DNA of 64,000 nucleotides from an uncultured Cellvibrio sp. (GCA_937958105.1 CALFXJ010000038.1:55555-119554); one strand, 5' to 3'; positions 16,552-41,839 are shown, counted from the first letter of the stretch. Notes: generated by a model not told the origin, from the letters alone. Program-made: numbers and translations.

Positions 16552-16561
16552 GGAGACTCCT

Positions 16562-17308: not shown

Positions 17309-17434
17309 TCCGGATTGTGGGTACTGGAGGGCGGCAATCTTTGCCCAGGTCGGTCTGCCTATACCATAAACAAGGTATATTGACCCCCGCCGGGCTCTGC
17401 CATGATGGGGTCCGATAGAACAGGCACAGATTCC

Positions 17435-18109
17435 ATGACCCACACAACAGCTGACAACGACCCTGCTTCACCGGCGGTGCGGGTACTTTTACTCGAAGAT
17501 GACGCACCGCTGCGCGAACGCTTTGCCCGCATCCTGCAGGACTGGCCCGGCGGGGAGCTGGTTGCTGCCTGCGCCACTTTGGGCGAAGCACTGGAGGTCC
17601 TCCACAGCCAGCCGGTAGATCTGCTGATGGCTGATCTGAATCTGCCCGACGGCCATGGAATTGAAGCCATTCAGCTGCTCCGCCGCCGCTACCCCGAAGC
17701 GGATGCCATGGTGATCTCAGCCCTGGCCGACGACGAAACCGTATTGGGAGCCATTGAGGCCGGCGCCGTGGGCTACCTGCTGAAGGATGCTGACTCACTG
17801 GAGCTGGTGGAAGCCATTCAGGAGCTGCGTGCCGGGCGCTCACCGATATCCTCGTCTATCGCCCGCATCCTGGTGCGCCGCATGAACGGCACCACCCCTG
17901 CTGTTCCCGCGCCCGAACTGACACCCCGCGAAACTGAAATCCTGCGCGGCATTGCCAAGGGTTTTACCTATACTGAACTGGCGGAGTGGTTAGGCATTTC
18001 GCGCCATACTGTGCCGGTGCACATCAAGAACATCTATCGCAAACTGGCGGCCAATAATCGCTCTGAGGCCGTATATGAAGCATCAAAAAGGGGTCTGTTG
18101 AAACTGTGA
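17435..18109 (+). CDS. NarL/LuxR-family response regulator
   Basis: Receiver (LLEDD, DLNLPD, GYLLKD) + LuxR HTH (LTPRETEIL...HIKNIYRKL). The start may be 17402. Confidence 0.92.
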   Translation: MTHTTADNDPASPAVRVLLLEDDAPLRERFARILQDWPGGELVAACATLGEALEVLHSQPVDLLMADLNLPDGHGIEAIQLLRRRYPEADAMVISALADDETVLGAIEAGAVGYLLKDADSLELVEAIQELRAGRSPISSSIARILVRRMNGTTPAVPAPELTPRETEILRGIAKGFTYTELAEWLGISRHTVPVHIKNIYRKLAANNRSEAVYEASKRGLLKL

Positions 18110-19923: not shown

Positions 19924-19944
19924 CCGGCATACCATATTCATGGT

Positions 19945-22326: not shown

Positions 22327-22386
22327 CAAACCGGGAAGACAAAGGCCGCACCTGCGGCCACTATCACCAAAGAGGACTTAACCATC

Positions 22387-24708: not shown

Positions 24709-25080
24709 GGAGGAAGTTTTTGATAAGAGCTCGGAAAGGTTTGCGTTTTTTGCAGGCCTTTCTGGGGTTTTTGCGGGGGTAGAAAAGGTGCAGGCCTGCT
24801 CTGGATTAAAACAGGTAATTGGCTTCCTCGTCGTTGTAATTTCTAATGCGATCACAATAAAGGATGCCGGGACGGATCATGGTTGGTGTTCTGGCTGTGT
24901 TAAAAAATCAAATCGACATTTACCTCCCATAACCCCCAGTCAGACGGCAATCTTCAACCGATCGCTGTGGCAAAGCTTTTCCGCTTGCTGGTATAGAAAC
25001 CTACGTACTGTCATCTAAACCCTGATTTAGATAATGGCACGTTCCCTGCGCGTGCTCATATATACATAACGGAGGTGTAC

Positions 25081-25557
25081 ATGTCAGCCATTACCCAACT
25101 AACCAGTACAGTCAATGCATTGCGATTAAAATTTACTAATAATGAGCATGCTCTGCACACCGCCAGCCAAGCCGCTGCCACCATTAACGCCGGCCCTTCG
25201 AACCCCGCTCGCCATCATGGCTGGGATCACTTTCTTCCGAAGGTTGAGGCTAATCCAGAATTTGCAAAAACCATGGCGAAAGATGTGGCTTTTATTCCAG
25301 ACAAGCTCTTAGTCAATTTGAATGAGGCTCCACCGCTCAATGATGCAGAAGCCTGGCGCAGATGGACAAACCAATCAGTCGAGTTTGATAACACCGCCGC
25401 GAAGGTAACAGAGCAAAGAATTGAGATATATAACGATATGAAACTCCACGGTTCTACAGATGCAGAAATCTTCAAAGCTCTAATAGAATTTAACCACTCC
25501 CTACCCATGGACTACCAGATCAAATCTGGATTGATAAAATTAAATGCTTATGCGTAA
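25081..25557 (+). CDS. Hypothetical protein (158 aa)
   Basis: GGAGG RBS before ATG 25081; no recognisable motif. Confidence 0.65.
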   Translation: MSAITQLTSTVNALRLKFTNNEHALHTASQAAATINAGPSNPARHHGWDHFLPKVEANPEFAKTMAKDVAFIPDKLLVNLNEAPPLNDAEAWRRWTNQSVEFDNTAAKVTEQRIEIYNDMKLHGSTDAEIFKALIEFNHSLPMDYQIKSGLIKLNAYA

Positions 25558-25677
25558 TTCCCTGGACTCCATTGAATTTGAATGTCTTTGCCTGAGGTGA
25601 TCGCTTCAATTAATTATTAATTGCATCAATGACAGCAGCATCTCGCTTGCGCCTGTCTCAGGATAGGGGAAGTGGAC

Positions 25678-25890
25678 AGGATGTGCCGAGTGACTCTCTC
25701 AACAAGCAGCACAATCTAAAAAAGAAATAAAAAACGGTAACGAATTTCCATCCGTTACCGTTTACGTTTTACTGCTTGTAGAATTGTGTCGTTACTGCAA
25801 CACGTCAGGATCATTTAATAATGGATCATGCATCTCCGGGATCAACTGATCAGTTTGACCGGGACATTCGCTTTTGGAGGGATAGCCTTT
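25678..25890. repeat. Direct repeat copy A (partner-gene 3' end + terminator + downstream tail)
   Basis: Closely matches 28939-29152 (offset about 3,261 bp), including non-coding aggatgtgccgagtga...caagcagcacaatct...aaaaaacggtaacgaa. Confidence 0.92.
25721..25763 (-). terminator. Rho-independent terminator ending the minus-strand cassette
   Basis: Stem aaacggtaacgaa/tccgttaccgttt (25732-25763). The single mismatch becomes a G-U pair in minus-strand RNA, and a U-rich tail follows. Confidence 0.85.
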
Positions 25891-26841
25891 TTGCCAAGTA
25901 AGTTGTTTGGCGGTGAGCCAGCCTTTTACAACCGATGATTCCGTATCTTGTTTTTTATATTCCCCATCAATAAGTTTGTAATGAACAAGAAGCTCACCTA
26001 TTTTAAAGAAACCTGGCACGGGATCATTAACCAATTTTGATTGATAGAGCTTTCTCCACAACACAATGTCACGTGACTGACTGCTCTCAAAACCGCCAAA
26101 GTAAAGCTTTGATATAGACCGTAATGCGGGGTACAAAACTCTCCTGTCTTTCACTTCCAGTGTGGAATAAGCAATATACGCGGGGTCACTGGATTTATTG
26201 TTGGTCAATCCTGAGTTCTGAGCTTCTTCCTGGGAAAGTTCATCGCTCAGGTAGTAATGCGCGCTGAAAATTACGTTCTTCTTTTGCGGTGAAAAAACGA
26301 CAAAATCCTTGCCAATCGTTAATACGAGTTCTTGCTGTGCGTCTTCGTTAATATCACCATACCGCAATGGGTTGGCTTCCATACATCCAACACGATCTTT
26401 TAAATCTCCGGGAGACATAAAGTAGCTCGGTTCATAGTCGGGCACGATTGCCAAGGTATCTGTGCGATTAAACTGCTCGCCATAAGCGGCTGCAATGGCT
26501 TCAGTCGCTAGAGAGTCTTCTCCGCCGATTTTTAGATGTTCTGAGTAGGGTTCGAGAGACCATGAACCGATAAGATCTCGGCTAGAATAACGCGTTGCGT
26601 ATAACTTCATCCTCTCAGACAGCGAATACACAACGCCAGTATCTTCAGAATGAAGAAATGCTCTAACTACCGGGTCACCAACCGATCTTTGCCCTGTTCT
26701 AGCAACAGAAAGTGGCAAGCTTGTTTGAGCAAGCGTAGAAAGGTTCTCCATTGTTACCCCAACACCTTGACTCAAAGCCAATTCCTGCGAACTCACCGAT
26801 ATCGAAGCAAACAATACTGCTGATAAAAAACAATTCCTCAT
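25792..26841 (-). CDS. Exported partner protein, paralog 2 (putative immunity protein of the orphan cassette)
   Basis: Signal peptide MRNCFLSAVLFASISVSSQ; ATGA overlap with the orphan-tip stop; homologous to 29054-30046 with an identical last 32 aa. The longer ORF-track start (26940) is rejected. Confidence 0.75.
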   Translation of the reverse strand: MRNCFLSAVLFASISVSSQELALSQGVGVTMENLSTLAQTSLPLSVARTGQRSVGDPVVRAFLHSEDTGVVYSLSERMKLYATRYSSRDLIGSWSLEPYSEHLKIGGEDSLATEAIAAAYGEQFNRTDTLAIVPDYEPSYFMSPGDLKDRVGCMEANPLRYGDINEDAQQELVLTIGKDFVVFSPQKKNVIFSAHYYLSDELSQEEAQNSGLTNNKSSDPAYIAYSTLEVKDRRVLYPALRSISKLYFGGFESSQSRDIVLWRKLYQSKLVNDPVPGFFKIGELLVHYKLIDGEYKKQDTESSVVKGWLTAKQLTWQKGYPSKSECPGQTDQLIPEMHDPLLNDPDVLQ

Positions 26842-28884
26842 GGTATAGCCACCCCTGTTACACAATCTATACGCCCTACTGGAGCTATTGGAGGCACTGC
26901 CAAAGGGTCGCCAACAGCAGCATCCAATGCATGAACCCACGTAGTTCCATTAGTCCACTCATTCTCCCCATAAGCAAAACACCAAGGCTCCGTTGTTTCT
27001 ATCACACCGGCAACCGGTGGAGTCGCTGTTGGGTCAGCAGGAATATCCTGAATAATACCATCACCATTAACATCAACACCTAAACCGCCTTGCCATACAT
27101 AAGTCCTATAGGGAAGATTCAATTTATCCACATCATGCATCACTCGCATGGCATAACGCATGGATTCCGTATTAGCAAACAACTGCCGTTGCTGAGCTGT
27201 CCTCTGACGATAACTGAGCCCACGAGCAGTAATAAAGCTTGGGTCCAGAGGGGTTACCCTGTCCAATAACATATTGATCCAGGAGCGTCCTGTACCTCCA
27301 CCAAAAATTGCTGCCCCCTGGTTGTAACCACCTAACCCCTTCGCCAGTAATTCGTAATCATCATCCGTATGGTTTGTTCCCGTAACAACAGAAGACACTG
27401 CCGTTGTTTCTATTTTCCTCAAGGGTGTTGCCACTGGCCATTGATAAATATCCCGATAACTCCTGCCGCCTGTGGTAGCAAATGCTCGATAAAAACTACC
27501 GCCACCACCACCGTTCTGACGAGGGACATCATCAATTGCCAGCCATACCGCTTTGGCAATCAGATTATGACGTGCATCATAATGATTAACCGCACTCACG
27601 CCAGCCGCGGTATAACCGGTAACCTCTTCCGCTGCGCTGCCATTTCCATCCTGTGCGCTCCCACCATAAGTGTAAGTATTCAGTAACTGGTTAAAGCCTT
27701 TACTACCTCGCTCATCACCACCACCGACAATTATTCGATAGTCAGCTTGATGCCTACCATTGGCTTCCATTTGCGCCATAGCTTTGAGAATCTGATGTCG
27801 TTCAAAGGTAGAGCCTGTCAACGTCTGTATATTGCTGTGTCTGGCTGCTGTATATGTCGGCGGGATGTTAGCGAAGCTTGGTCCGCCAGGATAATTAACG
27901 ACGCCATCCCAAACCGCTTCCGCCGCCTGAATCGCATTACCAGCTTGTGCACTCGTTTGTCCGCTAGCATTCGGTTCAAGATTCGCGTAATTAATCGTAG
28001 CACTCCCCTGCCAATGTGTATGTGCCAATATAAAATGACGCCAATGCCTGCCTATTTCAGCGATGGGCTGTTCACCAGTTACCGGTCCAGTATGCATTTC
28101 TTGTGTTTCATAGACTACCGGGCCATAGCTGATGTAATTAAATCGTCCGACCATGCGCCCCACTGACGGCGTAGAAGTAACAAATCGGTTACGATCTGCA
28201 ACACCCAGTCTTACGCCATATACTCCTGGTTTAGCGCTGGGCGACATGCCAATATTCCACATTACCGCCTCCAACATCGCCACGTCGCTGCCCGTCATCG
28301 GATTACTTGGATTAGCGTGAAACTCACGAGTTTTTACACGAAAATTGGTCCGATAATCACGCGGTACGCGCAATCCATCAACACCTGATGGAATGGTATA
28401 GCGGGCATAGAGGCTCGCCTCAATACCAGTATCTGTGGTTTGGGTGCCCGCCCAGTTTGACCAGTCAGTATCACCATTGGCGTCGACCGGCTCCCAGTAA
28501 ATATTGCCGTCATACAGATTACCTTGGGAATCCTCCTGTACATAAGGAATGTTAGCCTCAACCAGTGCGCAGGCATCCGCTGTTGTGTTAGTAACGCCAT
28601 AACGACGGCAGAAACGCCCACGATGGCCAAAGCGCCACTCCAGCCGGGTTAATTCAGTTCCGGCTAATGACGGGGGAATATAGCGATAACGTAACCGCAT
28701 GCCACCCAAGGTCCGAACACTGGGTATTTCCAGCATCGTCGCCGGTGCATTGACCGGTGTGCCCTGCTCTCCCGTTTCAAGCAAGCCAAGGATTTCAATA
28801 TCCGTTTCCACAACCCCGTTGCGGTTTTCCGTGTCGCCCGGTACCTGGTAATACACATGCAACCCGTTGCGGGTAAAGGCCCAC
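26838..28884 (-). pseudogene. Start-less orphan C-terminal module (PG-binding + lytic-transglycosylase-like), paralog of residues ~942-1634 of the 30060-34964 protein
   Basis: Intact 681-codon frame beginning WAFTRNGLHVYYQVPG. No signal peptide or RBS; the ORF-track start (28973) falls in non-coding repeat DNA just after a terminator. Confidence 0.8.
28789..28884. repeat. 96-bp homology anchor, copy 2
   Basis: 92/96 identical to 32047-32142 by hand alignment. Confidence 0.95.
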
Positions 28885-28948
28885 AAAAATGCAGGAAAGC
28901 ATTTTTGCACGGCGAAGCCGCCCGCAGGGCGAGGCACAAGGATGTGCC
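28884..28948. other. Compact four-hairpin element at the cassette junction
   Basis: caaaaatgc/gcatttttg, cggc/gccg, gccc/gggc and ggcaca/tgtgcc in tandem. Confidence 0.7.
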
Positions 28949-29152
28949 GAGTGATTCCCTCGACAAGCAGCACAATCTGAAAGAAGAAATAAAAAACGGT
29001 AACGAATTTTCATTCGTTACCGTTTACGTTTTACCGCCTATTGATTTATTTCGTTACTGCAACACGTCAGGATCATTTAGCAATGGATCATGCATCTCAG
29101 GAATTAACTGATCAGTTTGGCCGGGACATTCACTTTTAGAAGGATAGCCTTT
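28939..29152. repeat. Direct repeat copy B (partner-gene 3' end + terminator + downstream tail)
   Basis: Matches 25678-25890. Confidence 0.92.
28981..29025 (-). terminator. Rho-independent terminator ending the main operon
   Basis: Perfect 13-bp stem aaacggtaacgaa-ttttca-ttcgttaccgttt (28994-29025) followed by a U-rich tail on the minus strand. Confidence 0.88.
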
Positions 29153-30046
29153 TGACCAAGTAAGCTGTTTGGTAGTAAGCCATGTTTTGATGGTGGCTTC
29201 TTCGGTATCCTGTTTCTGATATGTGCCTTCGATGAATTTATAATGACGCACAACTTCTTTTTTGAGTTCAAATCCTTTTATGGGATCTTCCTGTAAACGA
29301 GATTCGTATCGTTTACGCCAAACCAAAATATCAAGCTCCTCATCTCCATCAAAATCATCAAAATAAACTTTTGCATAAGCTCGACGACCTACCCCACCAA
29401 TACGCCCCAACGCATCAGAAAGGTATTGCACTTTGCTGCCCGGAGGTGCCTCCACAGAATCTTGCAGGGCCAATCGGGCAGAAAATTCAATGGCAGCAGA
29501 CTGCGGAGAAAACAGTATCCAATCAAGTTGCTGGTCATTCTTTCCCATGTAAATAACCAAACTATCCTTGCCATTATTTTCCAAAGCACCATATCGCAAA
29601 GGCGTATTCGCCAAGCAACCTAATGAGCTCGTATTAAGTAAACGTTCATGAGCATATAAATGCCAAACATCACCCTCTGAGGCACCTTCCATGTCATAAA
29701 TAGACGCAACTTCTTTATCGATTAACTCGGTAGGCCAGCGAGTGAGGAGCCAGCCCGGATTAAACTGCTTTGTATTTACGTTAAAAAATACCACCCTACC
29801 GTCTGCCTTTAATGCATAGTATTCACCATCAATATCAGATTGAATAAAAGCTAGCGGTGACGAAGTATTTTCTGGGCAAGGATTATTCCATCCACAAAAA
29901 GACGCTGCATACGGCAAGCTTGTGGCTGCAAGATCCATAATGGTTTGGTCATTAACGCTGACTCCCTTTTCCAGTTGGATTTGGGAATATACCGATGAGC
30001 AGGACAAAAGAAAGCTTATTGAAAATATATACAATATTGATTTCAT
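29054..30046 (-). CDS. Exported partner protein, paralog 1 (putative immunity protein of the full-length effector)
   Basis: Signal peptide MKSILYIFSISFLLSCSSVYSQ; GGAG RBS right after the upstream stop; paralog of 25792-26841. Confidence 0.8.
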   Translation of the reverse strand: MKSILYIFSISFLLSCSSVYSQIQLEKGVSVNDQTIMDLAATSLPYAASFCGWNNPCPENTSSPLAFIQSDIDGEYYALKADGRVVFFNVNTKQFNPGWLLTRWPTELIDKEVASIYDMEGASEGDVWHLYAHERLLNTSSLGCLANTPLRYGALENNGKDSLVIYMGKNDQQLDWILFSPQSAAIEFSARLALQDSVEAPPGSKVQYLSDALGRIGGVGRRAYAKVYFDDFDGDEELDILVWRKRYESRLQEDPIKGFELKKEVVRHYKFIEGTYQKQDTEEATIKTWLTTKQLTWSKGYPSKSECPGQTDQLIPEMHDPLLNDPDVLQ

Positions 30047-30059
30047 CAAATTACTCCAG

Positions 30060-33000
30060 TCATTGACAAGCTATTCTTCCGACAGCAGGATTAAGCATAC
30101 TTCCTATAGCAGCTGTCCGCACGTCGGCATATCTTCGCCCGGCCATCCACTCCTTCTCCCCATAGGCGAAACACCATTCAGGCTGCCCCGCATTGAGATG
30201 CGGCTGGCCGGTAACCGGGTCTGTCTGGGGATATCGAGCGCCCACCCAAATATAGGTAACAAATGGTAAATAACCACCGATATCTGCTTGAATCGTCCAA
30301 CTTTGTTGCTTGACACCTAGCCAGTAACCAAAATGGGTGGGGGAGAAATTGCCTGCCGGAGTGCGACGCGGCATACCTTGCAAAGCAGTAAAATATGAGT
30401 TGTTTCGTAGGTTGTTAGCATTGGCACCTTGATTATAAGCAATTACCGCTTTACCCAAGAGGTTGTAACCATCGTCGTGAGTGCTATTAAAAGCAATCCA
30501 GTTAGCTTGGTTACCGGCGCGAGAACATCGCGGACCGACCATATCGCCAGGTGCGGTTGTTTCATAACAGTATGACAGCGGAGTGTTTTGCTGAGGATGG
30601 GCAACCACATAATCAGGGGTAGTTTGGCCCTGTGTTGTGATGTAAGCGTTGTATAAACCTCGTGAGTATGTACAGGCACTGTCGGAAGCCGCAGCGAGAA
30701 ACGCCAGCGCACTGTTTACCGGGTGGTAAAGATTAATATTTTCCACGCCATTGGTCAGGAAACCTCGATTGGATTCACAACTGTTTTCCGCCCCGTACAT
30801 ACGTTTCCAAACAATGTGGTTATAACCCATACTACCCTCTTCATCTCCACCCCCTTCGTTAATACGGTAGGGGCTAGGTTGGTAATTGGAGATATTGTTA
30901 CCCCAGAAAATTGCACCATTACCAACCTCTTGGAGTATCCATGATTTGAATACTCCCTCACGAGCAATGCCTTGGGCAACTTGGGGGAACTCAGCGACGA
31001 TATCGTCATGGATTGCTTGCGTGTACGTTGCCTCTAATGTGTAGGTAGCAGGTAAATTACCCGAGTAAGGTATGTCGCCGCCCTGATCCGCTAACTGTTC
31101 GATATCCACCCAAAGACTTGCGGGAAGTTGCCGATAAGTAAACACAGGATGTGCTGCATACGTTTCCACAGCCCGAAAATAATGGGACCAAATCCGTTGC
31201 AAGCGTCTCAAGGTAACATTGTTCACAATACCGCTTACATCAGTTGTTGTATTAGTGCCTGCTAAATCGTTGATATTGACATTCCTGGCCTGAAACCGAC
31301 GAATCATACCCTCCAAAGAAACTTGTCCTACCAGACATTGGGCACCCCATCCGTAGTAATACATACCCCTATTGTCAGCAGGAGCTCCCTGACAATTTTG
31401 AGTCCAGTTACTTAACCCGCTGCCATTTCGAGAAGAGTTTATCCTCGCTCCCAAGTATCCTGAGTTGTAGTTTGGATTCGCTCCATACTGCGGACTAATC
31501 CCCAACTGCCACAACATCGCCTCCAGCATCGCCACATCACTGCCTTCCATCGGATCAGCCGGGTCTGGCCTCAGTTCGCGGGTCTTGATATGGAAAGTCT
31601 GCTCATAAGTGCGCGGAACACGGTTGCCTCCAGAGCTGGAGGGGATGGTGTAATGTGCTTTCAGGCTAGCTTCAACACCTGTATCAGCCGTTTGCGTACC
31701 CGCCCAGTTGGACCAGTCCACGTTCGTGGTACCTGCCATGGGTGGTGCAGGTTGGTCCGTCAGGGGTTCCCAATACACATCGGCGGTGTCACCGGGTGGG
31801 ATGTTGGTTTGTTTGTAAACTACACCCGCATCAACAACCGTGCACTGCCCTTGCGGATCATCAACCCCATAGCCCTGGCAGTAGCGGCCACGTTTGTTGA
31901 TGGTCCAGTCGACGTAGGTAATTTCTGTACCGGCAAGTGATGGCGGTATATAACGATAACGCAAGCGCATGCCACCCAAGGTACGTACTACCGGGTCCTG
32001 AACCGGCATAACACCGGAACCCGCTTCACCCGGCTCAAGCAGGCTCAGGATTTCAATATCCGTTTCCACAACCCCGTTGCGGGTTTCCGTGTTGCCCGGC
32101 ACCTGGTAATACACATGCAACCCGTTGCGGGTGAAGGCCCACTCCCACAATGTATTCCCAGCGTCGTGGTTGAGGTACAAACGGATCGTGAGCAGATCAG
32201 TCGGGTCGAGATAATCAAGTTGCTCAAGATTGTCAAAACGAATTTCGCCCGTGTCTGTCACGGTAACCTTGAGTTCATGAGCACCAAGACTCATCACCAG
32301 TTCCTGTTCGCCCTCAATAGCGGTAAGGCGTGGAACGGTTTGTTGTACCAACGAATAAAACACGGAGACCAGATCATCGTCGCTGCGAATGGTGGGGATC
32401 TTGCCGTCGATTAATTGTTCCGTCAGTAATTCCTGTTCGTGGGCTTGGCCGCTTTCATCGGTATACTCACGCAGGATGCTATCGATCTCCAATTGGAACT
32501 GACTGAACTGGTATTCAGGGCGGTAGGTCCAGCCGTAGCTGGGCAAGGGCTTGGTCGGTTCGGTATCAATGACTTCCGCATCGTAGGCTTTCCTGGCCTG
32601 ATTCCAGGCAGAGAAGACTTGCCATTCCTTATCTTCGTCGTGTAACGGCACAAGGAAGGGAGTCAGCACGCGGGGGCGGTACTGCATCATATCCGAGGCA
32701 GCCGCGCCCCCCATGTCAAAACTGGGATTTTCGTCCTTCGGGGTGCCGGATACGTGGATGTAATAGTGTTCCGGCACCGTCAGGTTACTCCTGACCTGCA
32801 GAACTTGCATATTACGCCCTGCGGCAATGGGAAAGTTGGACAGGTCATTGTCCGTCACTGCCTGAATAAGATTGGGCGTTACGATCTTGGCCAAACGTCC
32901 AGTTAGACCATATTGCTCGCCGTGGTCTACACTCAATCCTTCCGGCAAAGGACGGCCATCATGATCAAACCATTCGGTGTAGATGGTAATGCGATCATCC

Positions 33001-34964
33001 GATACCCGGCCTGCGCCTTCCGCGCCAATAATATTATTCCGGCTTTCCCGCTGACGGGTTAAGCCGTTGTCATGCGTATAATCGCGCTCCGCCCAGACTT
33101 TCAGGTTCGGCGGTCGCAGGACAATGTCTTTTACCGGCACATTTAAGTAGCCACCGGGATTTCGGCTGGCATCGCTTAGCTGAACACGTTGGGTATCCAT
33201 GTAGCCGGTAGCGCGATTAATAACAACCAGGCGTATCCACTCGCCGGGTTTCAAATGATCCGACTCCTGGCTTTGGAATGAAGCAGTTAGTTTATTGCGT
33301 GAGGCCCAGTCGTCCCAACTACCGGAACGATTTGTGCCACCTATATTGAGATTACCGTCGCGCGGGCCGCGCAGCATGACCCGGTAGAAGACGTTGTCAT
33401 CGCCCTGCCCCATCCCCACTTGAGCACGCCCGTCAATCTCCGCATCGCGCAATCCCCTCCGCTCCATCACCAACTGGCCGGTAGATTCACGGAATACGAG
33501 AATGTCCGTGTTTTTAAAATCATCTTCGCTGATGCTGCTGAGAAGACCGTTGCTTTTGAATGCATTGCTTCCTTCGCGTTTTTTTTCTCTGTCGGCTTGA
33601 CGTATAACATTTGGCTGGCCAGTTGTTCCTCTCGAACTAAAATAAACGCCTTGGACACTGCCTGCGGGATCAGCCTCAAATATCGTTTCCACACTTCCAT
33701 CCGGTTGTGGTTGTTGCACCAGTTTACCCAAGACAGCCGTGTCGGGCTTTCCATCACCATCAAAGTCATAAAACGCTTGCGCGACAGGCGTAACAGAAGA
33801 CGCCTGCACTACATACTCAGTCGTATCTCCAATCGGAATAGGCACAACCGAGCCAGGTGTTCCCCCCGGATTGCCAATCAATATACGCCCAGTCAGAAAC
33901 ATTACATCCACCCGCAAATCAATGGCGTAATTGGGTGTGGACATGGTGGCAAGTGAGGCTATCGTATTAGTGTAGGCCATGGCGCCGCCCAGGCTCATGT
34001 CATACATTGCAGCGCCGTTACAATAGCTCCAATCCTGCCGACGCAGATAGTAAGGCAACACCGGTGCACCATTTGGGCTGAAGTTGGTGTAATAAAGTTC
34101 CGCCCATACATCCGTAGTGTGTTCAAAACTGAAACCCGGGCATGGAGGCAAACGAAAATTAAGACGGTACTTTCCCTCTCTGTCGGTCACATCCACGCCG
34201 CCCGGATAAACCCATTCATCCACATACACTTTTACGAATGGAACTGGCCCAAAAATTTGGTCTTCAGATCCGCGTGTGTAGCCTCCATAAAAGTCCTGTG
34301 CCTCTTTGGGATCTCCGAAGAAGCCGGACCGGGGCGCAATATTAAGATGTGAAAAAGCTATAATTCGCCCCTGCTCGTTCATGACAAGACTGACAGCATC
34401 ATCCGGTGGTGATGGCTGCGTAAGGTCAACACTGAAGGACATTAATATCAGTTGATCCGGGGCTGTCGTCAGGCGGTTACTGCGCCCGCGGACCAGCACA
34501 CTCTTCTGATGCTCCAACAATCCTGGTTTGTCAATAGATTCGCCACTTACCGTTAAAAAGTTGGCTTGCTTGTATTGTTCCCCACTCAACAATTGCGCGT
34601 CTTGCGCCAGAGGATTGCTAGGACGCTCAGTAAACTCTTTCCATCGATTATATTCACTTGTGTATTCGTAGGCGCTGATGATTTGTAGACGGTCAACCTT
34701 GTCCGCATATTCCCCCAAAGCCACTTCACCAGCCTCGGATCCATCCTCGTTGTACTGAACAAGGATAGGTTGACCTTTCTCATCCAAGGCCATTGCACGG
34801 GCCATCACTGCACCGTGTTTATAAACCTGGTTCTGGTAATAAGCAATCGCAAAGACAGTGTGTGCAGATAGCGTCAATGCAACCGCAACAGCAAACCGGT
34901 AAACAGGCGGTATACATTCCTTAACTAACTTCATTTTCATGTGGTTATGGTTCCCTGACATCAT
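30060..34964 (-). CDS. Large Sec-exported modular protein: ~940-aa N-terminal stalk + C-terminal PG-binding/lytic-transglycosylase-like module (putative polymorphic muralytic effector)
   Basis: Signal peptide (RFAVAVALTLSAHTVFA); GSDVAMLEAMLWQLG...IRRFQARN...SGIVNNVTL (PG_binding_1-like); SWILQE / GSMGYNHI / IAYNQG (SLT-like motifs I-III). Confidence 0.75.
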   Translation of the reverse strand: MMSGNHNHMKMKLVKECIPPVYRFAVAVALTLSAHTVFAIAYYQNQVYKHGAVMARAMALDEKGQPILVQYNEDGSEAGEVALGEYADKVDRLQIISAYEYTSEYNRWKEFTERPSNPLAQDAQLLSGEQYKQANFLTVSGESIDKPGLLEHQKSVLVRGRSNRLTTAPDQLILMSFSVDLTQPSPPDDAVSLVMNEQGRIIAFSHLNIAPRSGFFGDPKEAQDFYGGYTRGSEDQIFGPVPFVKVYVDEWVYPGGVDVTDREGKYRLNFRLPPCPGFSFEHTTDVWAELYYTNFSPNGAPVLPYYLRRQDWSYCNGAAMYDMSLGGAMAYTNTIASLATMSTPNYAIDLRVDVMFLTGRILIGNPGGTPGSVVPIPIGDTTEYVVQASSVTPVAQAFYDFDGDGKPDTAVLGKLVQQPQPDGSVETIFEADPAGSVQGVYFSSRGTTGQPNVIRQADREKKREGSNAFKSNGLLSSISEDDFKNTDILVFRESTGQLVMERRGLRDAEIDGRAQVGMGQGDDNVFYRVMLRGPRDGNLNIGGTNRSGSWDDWASRNKLTASFQSQESDHLKPGEWIRLVVINRATGYMDTQRVQLSDASRNPGGYLNVPVKDIVLRPPNLKVWAERDYTHDNGLTRQRESRNNIIGAEGAGRVSDDRITIYTEWFDHDGRPLPEGLSVDHGEQYGLTGRLAKIVTPNLIQAVTDNDLSNFPIAAGRNMQVLQVRSNLTVPEHYYIHVSGTPKDENPSFDMGGAAASDMMQYRPRVLTPFLVPLHDEDKEWQVFSAWNQARKAYDAEVIDTEPTKPLPSYGWTYRPEYQFSQFQLEIDSILREYTDESGQAHEQELLTEQLIDGKIPTIRSDDDLVSVFYSLVQQTVPRLTAIEGEQELVMSLGAHELKVTVTDTGEIRFDNLEQLDYLDPTDLLTIRLYLNHDAGNTLWEWAFTRNGLHVYYQVPGNTETRNGVVETDIEILSLLEPGEAGSGVMPVQDPVVRTLGGMRLRYRYIPPSLAGTEITYVDWTINKRGRYCQGYGVDDPQGQCTVVDAGVVYKQTNIPPGDTADVYWEPLTDQPAPPMAGTTNVDWSNWAGTQTADTGVEASLKAHYTIPSSSGGNRVPRTYEQTFHIKTRELRPDPADPMEGSDVAMLEAMLWQLGISPQYGANPNYNSGYLGARINSSRNGSGLSNWTQNCQGAPADNRGMYYYGWGAQCLVGQVSLEGMIRRFQARNVNINDLAGTNTTTDVSGIVNNVTLRRLQRIWSHYFRAVETYAAHPVFTYRQLPASLWVDIEQLADQGGDIPYSGNLPATYTLEATYTQAIHDDIVAEFPQVAQGIAREGVFKSWILQEVGNGAIFWGNNISNYQPSPYRINEGGGDEEGSMGYNHIVWKRMYGAENSCESNRGFLTNGVENINLYHPVNSALAFLAAASDSACTYSRGLYNAYITTQGQTTPDYVVAHPQQNTPLSYCYETTAPGDMVGPRCSRAGNQANWIAFNSTHDDGYNLLGKAVIAYNQGANANNLRNNSYFTALQGMPRRTPAGNFSPTHFGYWLGVKQQSWTIQADIGGYLPFVTYIWVGARYPQTDPVTGQPHLNAGQPEWCFAYGEKEWMAGRRYADVRTAAIGSMLNPAVGRIACQ
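32047..32142. repeat. 96-bp homology anchor, copy 1 (internal to the effector gene)
   Basis: Encodes WAFTRNGLHVYYQVPGNTETRNGVVETDIEIL; 92/96 identical to 28789-28884. Confidence 0.95.
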
Positions 34965-37900
34965 TGCTGCAGTGCACTGCGCAATTGCTGTAACGTTTTT
35001 GTGCCGTCTACAACATCTTGTAGAAGCGGCTGCTGGGAAAGATCAACTAATGCATAGCCTATGTAATCCAGTGTATTGATCTGGACCTTTCCTACACTTA
35101 TTATCCTGTAGTTTTCGATCTGCCCGATACCAACTGGCTCGATAACTTCTCGATCCGGGTTGTAACCCAGCAACACAACATATTTTATTTCCGGAGAAAT
35201 GTAATCGTAGGTGCCGGCTAGCATCGGGACTTTAATGTCGATACTAATGGGATTTTCCACCGCAACTCCCCGCGGCTGGCCAGCGAACATCCACTGCGGC
35301 CAAGCACCGGGAGTTACAGCTGCATTAAGCTGGCTGTAAGGCATGAATTGCACCTGCAGATTGCCGGAGGTCCGGCCGTTTTTAAACAATAATCTGGCTC
35401 CGGTTAAATCCAGCCGTAATTCATCGCCTGCCAGGCTGACGAGCCCCTGATCGGCGCTGATTAACTGGAACGGGATATCAGGGTGAAGCTCTGGTAAGCG
35501 TGACAAGCTGATTTCATTCTTGCGTCCTTGTTGCAGGTTAATAGTTCGCACCTGTGTCCCGTATCCCGGCACGGCAAAATCGGGATTAATGATCAGCTCA
35601 TGACGGCCACCAGGAATTTCATTACCAGCAGCCTCTTGAAAGCCAAAGGCAAAGCTGCCGTCATTATTTGTCGTGGTGGTGCGATTAAGAGACGTCAGCT
35701 TTACCGGCACTCCTGATAACGGCTGGCCGAATTGATCAACTACACCACCGATAATAAAAGTAGGCAGCTGACGTATTTTGAAATTGAATCGACCCAGTTC
35801 GTTACCATCGTAGATTACATCTACATAAACATCTGCATTAAAGCCGAAATGACGATTCGCGTAATATGCAAAACTCTGGTTGCCAGGTAAAACAGACACT
35901 GCACCTGGGACTATCTCGTTGTCGCGGTGCACTTCCTGAAGCTGATAGCCCTGCGCGGTCAGGAAATCAGCACCGGATGGATCAAGATTCAAGTAGGTAT
36001 TACCATGCAGCGTTTCACTGACCGTTATCGTCAATTTGGAAGGATCGATCGCTTTATTGAAGTAAAGCTCAACAGGCTGGTTTGGCTCGCGGTTATTTGC
36101 GTTATTCTCGGGCGAGTAGCGTACCAGTTCCACCGGTATCGCTGTCTCATCAGTCACTCGTACCTGACGCGTCGTAGACGCAACGATTATATTCTGTGCG
36201 TTTAAGACTTGATAATTGAGCGTGTATGTACCAGCTTGTGGAGGAACTGTAACGTCTCCGCTGGCCAAGGTCCCAACAACGGTCAGCTCTGTTTGTTGAG
36301 TATTTACTACAACTACTACACGATGCCCTTCACCGATTTCCGTAAGTCGAGCTGCAGCCTGGACTTTTATGGGATCACCTCGCCCCAGAAGCTCGGCATT
36401 TTCACCAGGCAATAACGGTGTAATCGAGGCTTGTGCTGTGGATTGAAAAATATATGCCACACTGGTCCGGTTGCCACTTATGTCGTACGCATTAAAGACC
36501 AATTGGGCTTGTGCGCCCGCGGCTAAAGATACAGGCAGGGTGAAGTCGTATTGGCCGACGCTTGCTCCCGGGCGTAATACCAGGGGCTGGTCATTAACAG
36601 TGATGCTGGACAGATTGTCATCACTTACTGTGCCATTTACAACGAAGGGTGATTGGATAACATTGTTAACTGCAGGGCTGGGCTGCAGGCTTGCATCAAG
36701 TATTAGCCGTGGCGGTGTACCGTCACGATGATACTGCGCAACAAGCCTGGAGGTCTTACCAAGTGCATCGCGAGCTTCAACCGTCACATCGACAGTGTCT
36801 ATGCCTTCAGGAAACGAAATTACCTGTTCGAAATAATAATCCTGCAAATTACCGGCTGGGGCAGAAACCGCCATACCATTTACTGTCACCTCAGCGAAAC
36901 CCGCGTGACTAATGACTCGCCCTTTGAAGCGAAAACTGCTATCGCGCAACTGGCTGCCATTAGCAGGCGCGACTATCGAGAGCCTAGGCTCCTCAATAGC
37001 ATCCGGATCTTCCGGTGTGTAGGTAATCGTCAATGTTTGAGAGTCTGCACCAGCAAGCGACTCAACCCGCAGAACAAATACATTCTGTCCTTGTTGCAGG
37101 CGAATATCTGGCAAAGCGAAAGCATATAAGCCTTCCTGACCGGTACCATCCGGGGTTATCTGCCATTCGTTAATGTAAAAACGTATAGCATCCAGAGCTA
37201 ACAGGGTCTCCACCTGGCCCTTGATAGTCACGGTTTCTTCGGATATTACCGCACCATTAGCAGGGGAAATATTTACGAGACGCGGCGGGGAACTACGTTG
37301 CACCTGATGAGTAGCCTGAGTCATATTGCCAGAAAAATCCGCTGCCACCACTGTCAGCAGATTCATCCCGACCGCCAGCGGTACTTCCGCCATAAACTGA
37401 TTCGCTGTAATTGTTGCTGTAACAGCTGATGCAGGAAACCGGTCCGAGGTTACAGTCACGCTTTGAATACCGCTGTATGGCTGAGCCGGATCAGATACAG
37501 ACCCTCGCAATACAACTGTGGGGGATTGCACCATTTCATCGGGGGTATTGGATATTTGCAGTAATGGAGCAACACGATCCGGGTAATCGTTAACATCGTC
37601 AGGATTGGTCCCTGCTTGAAGTTCTTCTTCATTGGAAAAGCCGTCACCATCACGATCCGGGTCGCTGTTATCACCGATACCATCACCATCCATATCAGAT
37701 GATTCATTGGGATCATCCGGGAATGCATCTTCATCATCAGGAATACCGTCGCCATCACGATCGGGTTTTGAATATTTGATATTCAACGATTGGCTAACAC
37801 TACCATCCGGTGAAGTTGCTTCTAACGTTAATACGTTATTTCCTTCCTGCAGCATCACCAAGAAAGAGAATAAATAAGCCCCAGCGGTGCCAGACAGGGG

Positions 37901-40111
37901 ACGCAGTGTATCGTCAAGATAAAGCTGTACATCATCTAACGACCAGGCAGTTATGACTTCACCAGTGACTGTAACAGTCGGAGCTGACACTTCAGAGCCA
38001 TCAAACGGTCCGCTAACGATTAATTGAGGAAGTGATATTCTGTGAACAAGAATAGAATCTACCGTTATGTTGCCGGAAAAATCTCGTGCCTCAACTTGAA
38101 TAAGGTTGCCCCCCAGCACCAGCGGGACACTTGCAGAGAAAGTTTGCTCATTGAGCGCAGCCGTAATCTGGTGGCCTTGTGTAGTGGACAGGACTACCGA
38201 TGCGATACCGCTATTTTCCTGTACCGGATCAATAACATTGCCTGTGATGAGGATTTCGCCAGCATCTATTGGCGTATCCGGCTGGTCAATCTGTAACTGC
38301 GGGGGAGTCAGATCTGGAGCAGGAGAAGTTCCTTGGCAGAGTTCACCAAAGTCAGCTAGTGAGACTGCGTTTGGCGTATAGGTCACATGACTGTCACTAT
38401 CTAAGGTAATTCCTTTGCCGTTCACTGCACCAAAGATCTGGGTTTGATAGTTCAACCTTACTTGACCACGACTATAAACCAGGGCGTGAGCGCTGCTGCT
38501 AGTATGAAATTCAATATCACCATAGCCATAGATAATGAGTTTGGCCGAATCCTCGGTGTTGCCATTAAGTTGAGCAGACCATGGAATATATAAGGGGTCC
38601 CTGATAAATAATCGCGCCGTTCCATTACCCACTACCTCTATCCTGGTGTCTGCTTCAAGTGCTAGACGCTCGATCCAATAATCCCCGGCGGGCAATCTTA
38701 GAGTGCTGCCGTAGCCTACATTCATTTCGCGAATCAGGTACGCATCAGGTTGAGCGGTAAAGTTTACTGTTGCATCAGCGGCAAGTGTGACCTGTCCGTG
38801 CTCCAGCTCATCGCTACCATTAATCGTGAATATGGATGACCAAGGCACCATTATCGTATTAGTTGCCAGTGTTGACTTAAAATCTCCCGCAGTTAATGTT
38901 TGGCTGGGAACGCCTGTCGCAACGCATTGAGTATCCTCACAGCTCTGAGCCGATCCACCCATAGTAATCACATCAACTGCTGATAACTGATGTGATGAGC
39001 CGCTGCGTAACTGCGCATTCTGCTGAAAGCTTATGGTTCCCACGTCGCCATGAGCCTGGAGTCCATTACCGAATGCCGCACGACATATGTTTCCAACAGG
39101 AGGTGGTGAGCTGCCCACAGGTGGCTCCTGGCTCCCATCACCACCTGTTCCTCCACAAAATGTGGATAATTCAGTCTGAGCAAGCGATCCGACGTCTGCA
39201 TAAATTTTTCCGGAGGAGCCAAGATTAGCCTGATGAAAACTGGCAACGCCGTAGAGCTTGGCTTGCGCGATACTAAGCCTGTTTTTACTGTAGCTCACCG
39301 CAGATACTTCAGAACCCGCCTGAAGGGTCAGATCTCCGTGGGTATAGATAAATAGTTTGCTGGCATTATCCGGGCTGCCTGCCGATGTCATGTTTGCATA
39401 GGACTGCCAGGGAAATGTTAGTCCGTTCTTAACGTAGAGCTGGGCAGTTCCCTCACCTACCACGTTGATTCGGCTCCCTGTGGCCAATGTCAGATTATCA
39501 ACCCAATAAATACCTGGCGATAAATTTAACGTAGCTGCATAACCAAGATTTAATTGATTGATATGGTATGAAGTTGTAATGGGTGAAAAAGTTAAAACTC
39601 CTTCTCCATTAACAGTAACGGATCGAAATTGATTATATTGATGCGTGCCTAAGGTAGCACTGCCTTGATAGACCACCTGGTAGTCAACACTACTGGTGTT
39701 TTCTGGAAAATCTATGTTAACAGCCTCAGCGTGTTGCGCAGAGGCACTGCAGCGGCGTGTACCACAACTGGGCAAAACGGACCAAGCAGAGTCATTGACG
39801 CGTGCCACCATTAATGATTCTTCTGCGGCATCCAACAGCTGTGCGTTCCAATCAAAACTGATTTCACCATCCGGCTGATGGCTCTGAACAGCCACGGGAA
39901 AAATGCTTTCACATGGTAGAGATGCTCCGAATACCGGGCTGCAAAGCGTTAGAAAAACCCATCCCATCAATTCAGAAATGCCCTTTTTCCTGGCATTGCT
40001 AAATGACCATCCCTCGAGAGCCGAGTCCTGTCTATTTAAATAATTTTCCATACGACCCTGTCTCATGTAGCCCAAGAGAGACCCTGCTCTCGCTGATAGT
40101 AAAGAACCCAT
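34961..40111 (-). CDS. Large exported Ig-like/TSP3-repeat protein with a duplicated N-terminal domain
   Basis: Repeated Ig-like units (PPQLQIDQP, PRLVNISPANG, PRLSIVAPANG); Ca-binding DxDxDG repeats at about 37580-37770; SbsA-Ig-like ELVRYSPENN; carboxypeptidase-regulatory-like GGVVDQFGQPLSGV. Overlaps the next gene (ATGA). True start uncertain. Confidence 0.8.
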   Translation of the reverse strand: MGSLLSARAGSLLGYMRQGRMENYLNRQDSALEGWSFSNARKKGISELMGWVFLTLCSPVFGASLPCESIFPVAVQSHQPDGEISFDWNAQLLDAAEESLMVARVNDSAWSVLPSCGTRRCSASAQHAEAVNIDFPENTSSVDYQVVYQGSATLGTHQYNQFRSVTVNGEGVLTFSPITTSYHINQLNLGYAATLNLSPGIYWVDNLTLATGSRINVVGEGTAQLYVKNGLTFPWQSYANMTSAGSPDNASKLFIYTHGDLTLQAGSEVSAVSYSKNRLSIAQAKLYGVASFHQANLGSSGKIYADVGSLAQTELSTFCGGTGGDGSQEPPVGSSPPPVGNICRAAFGNGLQAHGDVGTISFQQNAQLRSGSSHQLSAVDVITMGGSAQSCEDTQCVATGVPSQTLTAGDFKSTLATNTIMVPWSSIFTINGSDELEHGQVTLAADATVNFTAQPDAYLIREMNVGYGSTLRLPAGDYWIERLALEADTRIEVVGNGTARLFIRDPLYIPWSAQLNGNTEDSAKLIIYGYGDIEFHTSSSAHALVYSRGQVRLNYQTQIFGAVNGKGITLDSDSHVTYTPNAVSLADFGELCQGTSPAPDLTPPQLQIDQPDTPIDAGEILITGNVIDPVQENSGIASVVLSTTQGHQITAALNEQTFSASVPLVLGGNLIQVEARDFSGNITVDSILVHRISLPQLIVSGPFDGSEVSAPTVTVTGEVITAWSLDDVQLYLDDTLRPLSGTAGAYLFSFLVMLQEGNNVLTLEATSPDGSVSQSLNIKYSKPDRDGDGIPDDEDAFPDDPNESSDMDGDGIGDNSDPDRDGDGFSNEEELQAGTNPDDVNDYPDRVAPLLQISNTPDEMVQSPTVVLRGSVSDPAQPYSGIQSVTVTSDRFPASAVTATITANQFMAEVPLAVGMNLLTVVAADFSGNMTQATHQVQRSSPPRLVNISPANGAVISEETVTIKGQVETLLALDAIRFYINEWQITPDGTGQEGLYAFALPDIRLQQGQNVFVLRVESLAGADSQTLTITYTPEDPDAIEEPRLSIVAPANGSQLRDSSFRFKGRVISHAGFAEVTVNGMAVSAPAGNLQDYYFEQVISFPEGIDTVDVTVEARDALGKTSRLVAQYHRDGTPPRLILDASLQPSPAVNNVIQSPFVVNGTVSDDNLSSITVNDQPLVLRPGASVGQYDFTLPVSLAAGAQAQLVFNAYDISGNRTSVAYIFQSTAQASITPLLPGENAELLGRGDPIKVQAAARLTEIGEGHRVVVVVNTQQTELTVVGTLASGDVTVPPQAGTYTLNYQVLNAQNIIVASTTRQVRVTDETAIPVELVRYSPENNANNREPNQPVELYFNKAIDPSKLTITVSETLHGNTYLNLDPSGADFLTAQGYQLQEVHRDNEIVPGAVSVLPGNQSFAYYANRHFGFNADVYVDVIYDGNELGRFNFKIRQLPTFIIGGVVDQFGQPLSGVPVKLTSLNRTTTTNNDGSFAFGFQEAAGNEIPGGRHELIINPDFAVPGYGTQVRTINLQQGRKNEISLSRLPELHPDIPFQLISADQGLVSLAGDELRLDLTGARLLFKNGRTSGNLQVQFMPYSQLNAAVTPGAWPQWMFAGQPRGVAVENPISIDIKVPMLAGTYDYISPEIKYVVLLGYNPDREVIEPVGIGQIENYRIISVGKVQINTLDYIGYALVDLSQQPLLQDVVDGTKTLQQLRSALQQ

Positions 40112-40120
40112 GTGAAAAAC

Positions 40121-41020
40121 TTAGTCAGCTTGAGAGATGATCTCAACCTGAACCTTTTCTCGCGCCTCTTGTGAAGCATTCTTAACAGCCTCGCGTAGCA
40201 TTATCGGAGCCAAACGCTGGCGAATATCCCCGCTCACCTCAGCTAAAGATTTAGGAGGGGTTTTGACGAGATTGGTTACTCGTACCAGGTGTAATTGTCC
40301 ATCAATATAAAAAACATTGGACGTATTGCCTTTATCAAGGGCATTAACTTGCTGCTCTAAGACCTTATTCAACAGGCCTTCTGTGACCCTTGCCTTTTGA
40401 TGCCTGAGCCCCCACCGCTCATCCCACTTTGCAGCAGAAGACGACCAGTTGGTGGTTTGTCTTATTTCTGGAATGCTCCCCAGCAGATCATCTCGCATAG
40501 CATCTGAAATATTGGCTGGCGCAACCAACATTTCATAATCACGGATATCTACCGAACCAAACTCCTCCGGGTGCTTCTCATAATATTCATTAATCATCTC
40601 GGGCGTGACGGGCGTTGGTGTTACATGAGCCTGAAGATATTCTTTTACATACAGCTCTTCCTGATAAACTCGAGTCAGATTTGCAATTTTCTGAAGCTGA
40701 TCTTCAGAAAGCTCCTGCAGAGCCAGCTGCTTCATAGCGCGACTCGCGATCAGGCTATCAAGTACTTTTTGACGGAGGCTTTCATCGAAATTGAACATGT
40801 CTGCCTGGCTGAACGTGCGCTCTATAGAGAATAGCAGGTCATCTTCAGTAATCTCTTCACCGTTAACCTTGGCCAGGACCAGAGAGGATTGGGCTGTATC
40901 CTGCCCCTCCTGCTTCTGGTCACAACCAGTCAACCCGATACTCAAGAAAATGAGCAGAGCTGATATTCGAGGCATAGTCACCCGAGAGACTTCGGTGGGG
41001 ATTTTCCTGTACAACAACAT
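40121..41020 (-). CDS. Lipoprotein SurA/PrsA-like chaperone with a degenerate parvulin domain
   Basis: Lipobox LTGC; LAKVNGEEITEDDL; LAEVSGDIRQRL; lacks the HIL and GGDLG motifs. The start may be 40975. Confidence 0.75.
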   Translation of the reverse strand: MLLYRKIPTEVSRVTMPRISALLIFLSIGLTGCDQKQEGQDTAQSSLVLAKVNGEEITEDDLLFSIERTFSQADMFNFDESLRQKVLDSLIASRAMKQLALQELSEDQLQKIANLTRVYQEELYVKEYLQAHVTPTPVTPEMINEYYEKHPEEFGSVDIRDYEMLVAPANISDAMRDDLLGSIPEIRQTTNWSSSAAKWDERWGLRHQKARVTEGLLNKVLEQQVNALDKGNTSNVFYIDGQLHLVRVTNLVKTPPKSLAEVSGDIRQRLAPIMLREAVKNASQEAREKVQVEIISQAD

Positions 41021-41023
41021 AAA

Positions 41024-41839
41024 TTAATCCTTTCGGCTCACTTTGATCGTTTTCAAAAGGCGTTCAGTCTCGACAATCTTGGTTTCGTTACGTAACTGAT
41101 AACGAATATCACCTTCAACAGCATCCAAAGGACGCGTTACTTTTTGCGGGCCCTCTACTGCCTTAATCACATGAAAGCCAAAAGGGGTCAAAAATGGCTC
41201 AGATACATCACCGGGCTTCATGGAGAACAATCTTTCAGAAAACTCAGGATCAACAGACCCTTCGGCCAGCCATCCAAGATCTCCGCCCTTCTTTGCTGAT
41301 ACCGTATCTTCTGAATAAATTTTCGCTACATCTGTAAATTCTTCGCCTTTTTGAATGCGGCTGTAAGCCTCATGTGCTGTACTGAGTTTCGCCTGCCGCT
41401 CTGTTTCGCTCATTTTTGAATCGACGCGGACAAGTATGTGTGCAACGTGCATCCGCTGAGTCTCATAATCAGCCATGTTATTAGTGTAAAAATTCCGCAC
41501 AGCGTCATCGTCCACTGATTTTTTGAGATGCTCCTCAAAATAGCGTCCAATCAGCATTTGTCGACGAAACTCTTCCAGCTCGGCACCAATTAAGTCGGCA
41601 TCAAGCTTTTCTGTCTTCTCTATTGCTGCCGCTAACGCAGCTCGCTGTACGTATTCGTCCAATGCTCTATCAACACGAGCCTTGTCTTGCTCGGGAACAC
41701 GTTTGAATTTTAAATACGCATCAAACTCCGCTTGGGTGATATCGCGTCCATTTACGGTCGCAATAGTGCCTGAATCACTGCATCCTGACAGAGCCAGAAA
41801 AGCGCAAAAACATAATGTTGAAACTTTTACTGCATTCAT
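41024..41839 (-). CDS. Lipoprotein parvulin (PpiC-type) peptidyl-prolyl isomerase/foldase
   Basis: Lipobox LSGC; IATVNGRDIT; HVAHILV; SAKKGGDLGW; TPFGFHVIK. Confidence 0.92.
   Translation of the reverse strand: MNAVKVSTLCFCAFLALSGCSDSGTIATVNGRDITQAEFDAYLKFKRVPEQDKARVDRALDEYVQRAALAAAIEKTEKLDADLIGAELEEFRRQMLIGRYFEEHLKKSVDDDAVRNFYTNNMADYETQRMHVAHILVRVDSKMSETERQAKLSTAHEAYSRIQKGEEFTDVAKIYSEDTVSAKKGGDLGWLAEGSVDPEFSERLFSMKPGDVSEPFLTPFGFHVIKAVEGPQKVTRPLDAVEGDIRYQLRNETKIVETERLLKTIKVSRKD

Follow-up and report, generated by a model that had tools for sequence, protein, structure and literature searches.

The stretch of DNA studied here, a 64,000-nt window from an uncultured Cellvibrio sp. (GCA_937958105.1 CALFXJ010000038.1:55555-119554), encodes an exported protein that consists of a conserved N-terminal stalk and a polymorphic C-terminal tip (tip 1), followed by a partner gene (partner 1) and by a second tip-plus-partner cassette without a stalk (tip 2, here called the orphan, and partner 2). 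Both tips begin with a nearly identical stretch of 96 nt, the anchor, which probably serves as a point of tip exchange. Three observations carry this conclusion: the repeat structure itself, a boundary between stalk and tip that is found throughout the protein family, and natural variants with breakpoints at the anchor. All relevant genes are located on the minus strand, and the coordinates of the features are collected in Table 1.

The original prediction held that the two 96-nt stretches are nearly identical, and they are: they differ at only 4 of 96 positions (28825, 28835, 28842 and 28875), and the longest identical runs measure 36 and 32 nt. Two of the mismatches are non-synonymous, which leaves two synonymous differences in 32 codons. 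A repeat search of the window reports the anchor pair as 117 nt with 91% identity and a spacing of 3258 nt. In order to follow identity along the whole duplicate, I globally aligned the two ~3.26-kb cassette units and scanned the alignment with a 60-nt sliding frame. Identity is 56-57/60 at the anchor, 25-44/60 across the ~700 nt that follow, and ~20-26/60, which is background, in the cassette core; it is therefore not uniform along the duplicate but peaked at the anchor, as foreseen. The rapid divergence and merely patchy protein similarity expected beyond the anchor are also observed, since all motifs quoted for it are found and the tips are 34% identical across their full length. However, in the final ~300 nt of the units (29246-28939 vs 25984-25678) identity climbs back to 51-56/60, a rise that covers the partner C-terminus, the stop codon, a terminator with a 14-bp stem and a short spacer. 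The duplicate is therefore a cassette with two conserved flanks and not one, and the second and longer flank had been overlooked in a description by the anchor alone. The anchor peptide, WAFTRNGLHVYYQVPG.TE.RNGVVETDIEIL, begins at W942 of the 1634-amino acid (aa) open reading frame (ORF) and at W31 of the 711-aa orphan ORF; the start at W942 had been recognised correctly, although base 32142, to which it had been assigned, sits one base 5' of the W942 codon (32141-32139). When a crossover within the anchor is simulated, 3258 bp are lost and the resulting frame stays open for 1622 aa, made up of stalk residues 1-941 and 681 aa of tip 2, in agreement with the proposed deletion that fuses tip 2 in frame to the stalk.

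The same boundary recurs across the family. A HMMER search with aa 501-1634 (E<=1e-3) matched 651 representative clusters, and the full 1634-aa protein was compared by blastp with 188 retrieved homologs in order to map the boundary. Stalk-only matches, followed by 143-2189 aa more that are unrelated to tip 1, were obtained for 132 of the 188; among these the match ends at residue 944 in 75 and between residues 941 and 955 in most others. The same tip class was present in 31 full-length proteins (stalk and tip) and in 13 tip-only proteins. In an alignment of 171 homologs the stalk ends with the motif RLYxNxDxxNxLWE[WY]AF, the last residue of which is F944 (RLYLNHDAGNTLWEWAF in the window protein); D-10, N-7 and L-5 are invariant, W-4 is conserved in 94% and F0 in 89%, and pairwise identity averages 56% over the 30 aa that precede F944 but 10% over the 30 aa that follow it. 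Given this sharp boundary across homologs, the analogy drawn earlier with VENN in CdiA and DPxG in Rhs is right and the junction motif is a universal landmark, but it is not the anchor peptide that plays this part: the motif overlaps the anchor in the first three anchor codons only (W942-F944), while the remainder of the anchor peptide (TRNGLHVYY...DIEIL) is specific to one tip class. Conceivably, the tip is released by processing at the invariant D..N.LW of the motif. A constraint on the anchor at the DNA level across genera was also considered, and dropped in view of synonymous changes in two loci (L056 and L057).

Breakpoints at the anchor in other genomes, another expectation of the original prediction, are seen in Cellvibrio japonicus and in near-conspecific contigs. 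The locus of C. japonicus Ueda107 (L015, CP000934.1 2875136-2900106) contains, in this order, a DUF7305 protein, a stalk gene split in two (1275 + 336 aa) with its partner, an insertion sequence (IS; rve) element with a gene of the SymE toxin family, a second stalk gene (1656 aa) with its partner, and two orphans of 669 and 678 aa, each with a partner. Upstream of the anchor the two stalk genes agree at 100% for hundreds of nucleotides; across the anchor they are 92% identical, and after it they diverge. Two comparisons that involve the 669-aa orphan were left out as artefacts of segments that overlap. When compared with the first stalk gene, the cassette of the 678-aa orphan shows background identity upstream of the anchor and 98-100% identity from +21 nt in the anchor through the tip and most of the partner; thus the same tip is present both fused and orphan, with the boundary of the copy at the anchor. 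A third stalk gene, CJA_2502, which has a Big_1 tip, is located just beyond, so that three paralogs lie within ~30 kb. With three stalk genes and two orphans in one locus, C. japonicus Ueda107, a non-pathogenic and tractable laboratory host, is therefore a natural system in which to measure recombination-driven switching. Besides the one standalone cassette in the window and the two in C. japonicus, others occur in the genomes G079 and G027. The orphan of G079, which belongs to another genus, retains ~52 aa of the stalk with the junction motif included, and one in G027 retains ~20 aa. The anchor remains a probable tip-exchange point, but the "exact" position claimed for it holds for this lineage only, as orphans in other genera keep ~20-52 aa of stalk.

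Close relatives of the window sequence vary in the same region. Two Logan contigs (L108 and L109; 97-99% nucleotide identity) contain a stalk, truncated by IS3, that is fused to tip 1; partner 1 follows, an orphan is absent, and blastn joins window position 29053 directly to 24773. The absent segment holds terminator 1, a hairpin element described below, orphan tip 2, partner 2 and a 160-aa ORF. The base that follows the partner-1 stop is linked to a position 65 nt beyond the stop of a sulfatase gene, and no obvious repeat is present in the ±40-nt flanks of the two ends. In two further contigs, L107 (JGI, 98.8%) and L110 (ENA, 98.6%), the order is partner tail, terminator, hairpin element, anchor and tip 1; tip 1 is therefore in the orphan position there. 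These copies of tip 1 are decaying, that of L107 by a 78-nt deletion and a split frame and that of L110 by a cut at its 3' end. Between genes the two contigs depart from the window by 6-10%, and hence they do not represent mere mis-joins of sequence like that of the window. In a protein, P0057, this stalk (197/198 aa identical) is joined to tip 2 (97%). Codons 958 and 961 of P0057 show the tip-1 form of the anchor and the codons from 974 onward the orphan form, and therefore the switch falls within the 36-nt identical run.

The orphan anchor is as described in the original prediction, but the element that directly adjoins it had been overlooked. This element folds into four hairpins, and its structure is supported by six covarying base pairs across 10 copies; it resembles repetitive extragenic palindromic (REP) elements. 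It is found at the same junction in both C. japonicus orphans, and in all three orphans it ends 0-1 nt before the anchor. The homology of these orphans begins at W942 because the element lies immediately upstream, and the first 30 codons of the orphan tip-2 ORF in fact read through it. In C. japonicus a copy lies 3' of each of the four partner genes. I considered that the element might be specific to this locus, but dropped this, as it is dispersed across genomes of the bacterial family: it is present in 57 of 201 genomes and 23 of 50 genera, often in multiple copies and sometimes in tandem, with additional examples at G079:C26:37389-37608 and in L027 and L033. Where they align, copies from other genera are 74-94% identical to that of the window. 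The genome under study contains one full copy; after the second cassette, 37 nt of the spacer that precedes the element are left. Rfam yields nothing in 25500-32400 and no match for the element. Its short length (~75 nt), hairpins, intergenic position downstream of genes, multiple copies and occasional tandem arrangement are shared with REP elements and bacterial interspersed mosaic elements (BIME), while the 74-94% identity across genera and the single full copy here, exactly at the cassette junction, are not. It looks like a REP-like part of an inherited cassette junction, either an undescribed element of the REP/BIME type or a small structured RNA, and its presence at that junction bears on how orphan arrays get built.

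In the arrangement that I propose, the anchor would be the 5' homology arm of a tip-plus-partner cassette, placed at the boundary of conserved stalk and polymorphic tip, and the cassette would run from anchor through variable tip, variable partner gene and conserved partner tail to the terminator. Only the first cassette would be fused to a stalk and expressed. The orphan has no stalk, no signal peptide and no start context, and it is positioned behind the strong terminator 1, so the second cassette is presumably a silent spare; no promoter-like site is found between terminator 1 and the orphan anchor. General homologous recombination between the anchors, presumably of the RecA type, would delete 3258 bp and fuse tip 2 in frame to the stalk, and cassettes could be duplicated, deleted or reordered if exchange at the anchors or the 3' flanks were unequal. 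A terminator is present 3' of each partner gene. The orphan tip-2 stop and the partner-2 start overlap as ATGA (26838-26841), which suggests translational coupling that is kept even in a silent cassette.

What the tips and partners do is suggested by their architecture. As in polymorphic toxins, a conserved N-terminal region is joined to unrelated C-terminal regions at a fixed point, the downstream gene co-varies with the C-terminal region, and standalone C-terminal cassettes lie downstream of the full-length gene. The two partners, both with signal peptides, diverge alongside their tips (36% identity), with the last ~60 aa nearly identical, and FG-GAP-like repeats occur in 26 of 43 members of the partner family. 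Other tips in the stalk family carry Big_1, Invasin_D3, Laminin_G, RHS repeat, Phosphodiest or Peptidase_M15_3 domains, and other tip classes, including the M15 type and one with a nuclease-like motif, have downstream genes unrelated to the partner found here. The RHS repeats, in one distant family member (P0048), are located in the tip and not in the stalk. No specific structure or domain match was obtained for the tip of the window and no PDB fold match for its partner, and a reading of the pair as toxin and immunity protein therefore rests on architecture: co-varying pairs, orphan arrays that appear silent, partners that appear to be exported, and hydrolase or RHS tips in relatives. By analogy with CdiA, Rhs and MafB orphans, I would put at about even the chance that tip and partner are a secreted antibacterial effector and a periplasmic immunity protein. 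The explanation as a whole, namely an exchange anchor, a silent spare cassette and an effector/immunity pair, is the best that I can offer for the locus and is probably correct.

A number of results weigh against this explanation. The anchor is short for efficient recombination, 96 nt as against 522 bp in the Rhs case discussed below. The anchors of L107 and L110 have the tip-1 form all the way to the hairpin element, a pattern for which a single crossover in the identical runs is insufficient. P0057 comes from the SRC catalogue, which I take to be a protein-level assembly, and it could be an assembly chimera across the repeat; no contig is on record for it or for the protein P0045. The junction of stalk and tip 2 is absent from JGI metagenome contigs when searched with a degenerate DNA pattern, and a P0057-guided protein scan of JGI metagenomes returned distant stalk homologs only. 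As for the toxin part, the tip has no match in Pfam, strict or loose (E<=5), nor in NCBIfam. Its structure model (pLDDT 67, pTM 0.71, the predicted local distance difference test and template modelling scores) shows a beta-sandwich followed by a helical domain, and the tip has no match in the PDB by sequence, profile or fold, nor a BFVD fold match in Foldseek; these searches yielded only weak immunoglobulin (Ig)-like matches for the N-terminal beta-sandwich. Two candidate domains were tested by hhalign of the tip profile against domain alignments from relatives and rejected: an SLT/GH23 lytic transglycosylase aligned over 11 columns (AYNxG) with a probability of 3%, and PG_binding_1 (PF01471) over 19 columns of a helix, GSDVAMLEAMLWQLG, with a probability of 0.2%. 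A PF01464 search of the own genome (E<=1e-8) does not list the tip. Neither does the fold of the partner (AlphaFold2 model, pLDDT 88.7) match any PDB entry, known immunity proteins included.

Alternatively, the repeat may be a plain old tandem duplication, in which anchor and partner tail have stayed alike through purifying selection on their peptides and no exchange takes place. The tips are indeed homologous over their full length, as are the partners, and the first half of the anchor (FTRNGLHVYY.[VI]PG) is preserved at the protein level between genera while its codons change synonymously. However, the anchors here show only 2 synonymous differences in 32 codons and the same anchor differs far more between Cellvibrio species, tip 1 is found both fused and orphan in near-identical strains, and the recent copy in C. 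japonicus is bounded at the anchor, which together make a duplication of this kind highly improbable. Movement could also be site-specific or mediated by an element, with the hairpin as an attC-like or REP/RAYT (REP-associated tyrosine transposase) substrate that recombines at a TTGTGGG core common to the stalk junction. This would fit with the covariation-supported hairpin, which stops 0-1 nt short of the anchor in three orphans from two species and recurs after each of the four C. japonicus partner genes, and with the tip-1-type sequence in L107 and L110, which begins within ~10 nt of it. On the other hand, copies of the element are scattered over many unrelated loci and form tandem arrays, as those of ordinary REP elements do; genomes with this tip class but without the element exist (e.g., G148); the G079 and G027 orphans have no such element and begin inside the stalk; the switch in P0057 maps inside the anchor; and no integrase or RAYT-like gene is present among the window genes scanned, though no dedicated search for one was made. 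I therefore regard an active role of the hairpin element in recombination as a minority view, and movement by this route as highly unlikely.

The exchange may, on the other hand, be as proposed while its biology is different. The tips could serve a giant surface complex as interchangeable heads with an adhesive or enzymatic role, varied against phages or grazers or for different substrates, and the partner could be a periplasmic chaperone or assembly factor. The operon includes huge repeat proteins and two peptidyl-prolyl isomerase (PPIase) chaperones, many tips carry Big_1, Invasin_D3 or Laminin_G domains, an invariant partner tail could dock on a conserved part, and the tip of the window has no detectable toxin domain. 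Against this, silent tip-plus-partner arrays with partners specific to the tip class are a hallmark of toxin and immunity systems, and some tips carry RHS repeats or an M15 peptidase; I consider surface heads rather unlikely, although they deserve more weight than the two alternatives above.

The exchange principle itself is already known. In Salmonella, recombination of the principal rhs gene with an orphan over 522 bp of 95% identity activates the orphan toxin (PMC3967940). The rhs-CT/rhsI genes of Salmonella Typhimurium LT2 (STM0291/STM0292; CT, C-terminal) resemble the system described here in their conserved N-terminal body with a sharp boundary motif, in downstream silent orphans of CT plus immunity gene without start and export signals, in the homologous recombination that fuses an orphan tip to the main gene (PMC3967940), and in the occurrence of one and the same CT as an orphan in one strain and within the main gene in another, as with tip 1 here. 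However, the window protein has no RHS/YD repeats (Pfam) and no PAAR or type VI secretion context; its junction reads RLYxNxDxxNxLWE[WY]AF instead of PxxxxDPxGL, its homology arm measures 96 nt, its tips reach a large size (~690 aa) and export starts with a Sec signal peptide. CdiA-CT/CdiI pairs likewise show a demarcation motif followed by a polymorphic C-terminus with its cognate downstream gene, and orphans, and CdiA orphan arrays keep a short conserved stretch upstream (PMC3150448), whereas the orphan in the window keeps no stalk. Moreover, no CdiB two-partner secretion (TPS) partner, TPS domain, haemagglutinin (FHA) repeats or VENN motif is present here (Pfam/NCBIfam), and the neighbours are PPIases and giant Ig/RCC1 proteins. 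MafB has a Sec signal peptide, a conserved N-terminal domain that ends in a class-specific motif (VSGDF, VKYDT) and a variable C-terminus, and Neisseria mafB-CT cassettes, each with a mafI gene, occur with or without start codons (PMC4287609). The MafB/MafI pairs of the Neisseria maf islands thus share signal peptide, boundary motif, variable C-terminus and downstream cassettes with the present system, but MafB is small (~300 aa of conserved DUF1020) and restricted to Neisseria, while the stalk here is ~940 aa long and is encoded by the last gene of a five-gene operon that also specifies giant proteins and PPIases; no relationship was detected at the sequence level. With regard to integron cassettes, a hairpin element lies 3' of the cassettes described here; this element is dispersed like REP, and no integrase appeared in a general scan of the window genes that was not a dedicated search.

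In contrast to the principle, the family, its junction motif and its operon context appear to be new. No Pfam or NCBIfam model matches stalk, tip or partner, the 1634-aa protein has no sequence match in the PDB either, and when the PDB was searched with the stalk profile, the only matches were to laminin-G and Ig parts that belong to other tips. Nor did searches of the literature uncover a description of the stalk family, which is large, apparently undescribed and built like known polymorphic toxins; the orphan exchange logic of the Rhs, CdiA and MafB type thus extends to a large family without a Pfam or NCBIfam model. Its distribution is patchy (17 of 201 genomes of the bacterial family). The junction motif provides a clean handle for cataloguing new effector/partner pairs in genomes and metagenomes. 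The five-gene operon is conserved with the same gene order in Neptuniibacter (L105), where the counterpart of the giant protein measures 10148 aa and a type II secretion cluster adjoins. The operon protein with DUF7305, TSP3 and Ig domains is 1500-1900 aa long across Cellvibrio and Neptuniibacter, and in G017 and C. japonicus, too, its homolog immediately precedes the stalk gene. This conserved context points to an unstudied delivery route. It is tempting, though I hold it only tentatively and at less than even chance, to let the stalk protein define a superfamily of polymorphic effectors that has gone unrecognised in marine and soil Gammaproteobacteria (651 or more clusters at 50% identity), with a pre-toxin motif of its own and with export by Sec and perhaps then by type II secretion, so that the five-gene operon, with its RCC1-repeat protein of 7000-10000 aa, its two dedicated PPIases and its Ig/TSP3 protein, would be a new delivery apparatus for exchangeable toxins.

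Table 1. Location of the features discussed in the text (window coordinates).
Feature	Position	Strand	Description
Full-length stalk gene, 1634 aa	30060..34964	-	Sec signal peptide, ~940-aa conserved stalk (aa 1-944), tip 1 (aa 942-1634)
Junction motif, aa 928-944	32133..32183	-	end of conserved stalk
Anchor copy 1	32047..32142	-	first 32 codons of tip 1, from W942; 92/96 nt identical to 28789-28884
Partner 1, 331 aa	29054..30049	-	lipobox-like signal peptide, FG-GAP-like repeats
3' conserved flank copy 1	28939..29246	-	partner-1 C-terminal tail, stop, terminator, spacer; 82-84% identical to 25678-25984
Intrinsic terminator 1	28994..29025	-	14-bp stem and T tract, between partner 1 and orphan
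REP-like four-hairpin element	28883..28959	-	~75 nt, directly adjoins orphan anchor
Orphan tip 2, ORF 711 aa	26838..28973	-	homology to tip 1 from W31
Anchor copy 2	28789..28884	-	5' end of orphan tip 2
Partner 2	25792..26841	-	signal peptide; start ATG at 26841
3' conserved flank copy 2	25678..25984	-	includes terminator 2 (25732-25763) and 37-nt spacer remnant (25678-25714)
Segment absent from L108/L109, 4279 bp	24774..29052	.	blastn joins 29053 directly to 24773
1716-aa DUF7305/Ig/TSP3/CarboxypepD_reg protein	34961..40111	-	directly upstream of stalk gene
EpsD-like PPIase	40121..41020	-	upstream operon gene
PPIC-type PPIase	41024..41839	-	upstream operon gene
Giant RCC1-like-repeat protein, >7371 aa	41884..63999	-	first operon gene, runs off window edge

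The GC content of the operon is 46-50%, compared with 51-63% in its left flank. The part from 16000 to 24700, which abuts the operon, has 60-63% GC and encodes a histidine kinase, a multihaem cytochrome with TPR/HEAT repeats and a sulfatase. Between the second cassette and the sulfatase gene, inside the strain-variable segment, lies the 160-aa ORF (25075-25557, plus strand), which has no Pfam match. Two tips of another class are encoded in G027 (L013 3-4286; L014 7008-10946); they are 1300-1400 aa long and, like their downstream genes, have no Pfam match. One of them adjoins tyrosine recombinases and a primase-like gene, and both precede genes of 267-269 aa that look related by eye. These tips end in a D...E.K pattern, e.g. 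IDIVLEDSDGKEHWKELKS, which resembles that of PD-(D/E)xK nucleases.

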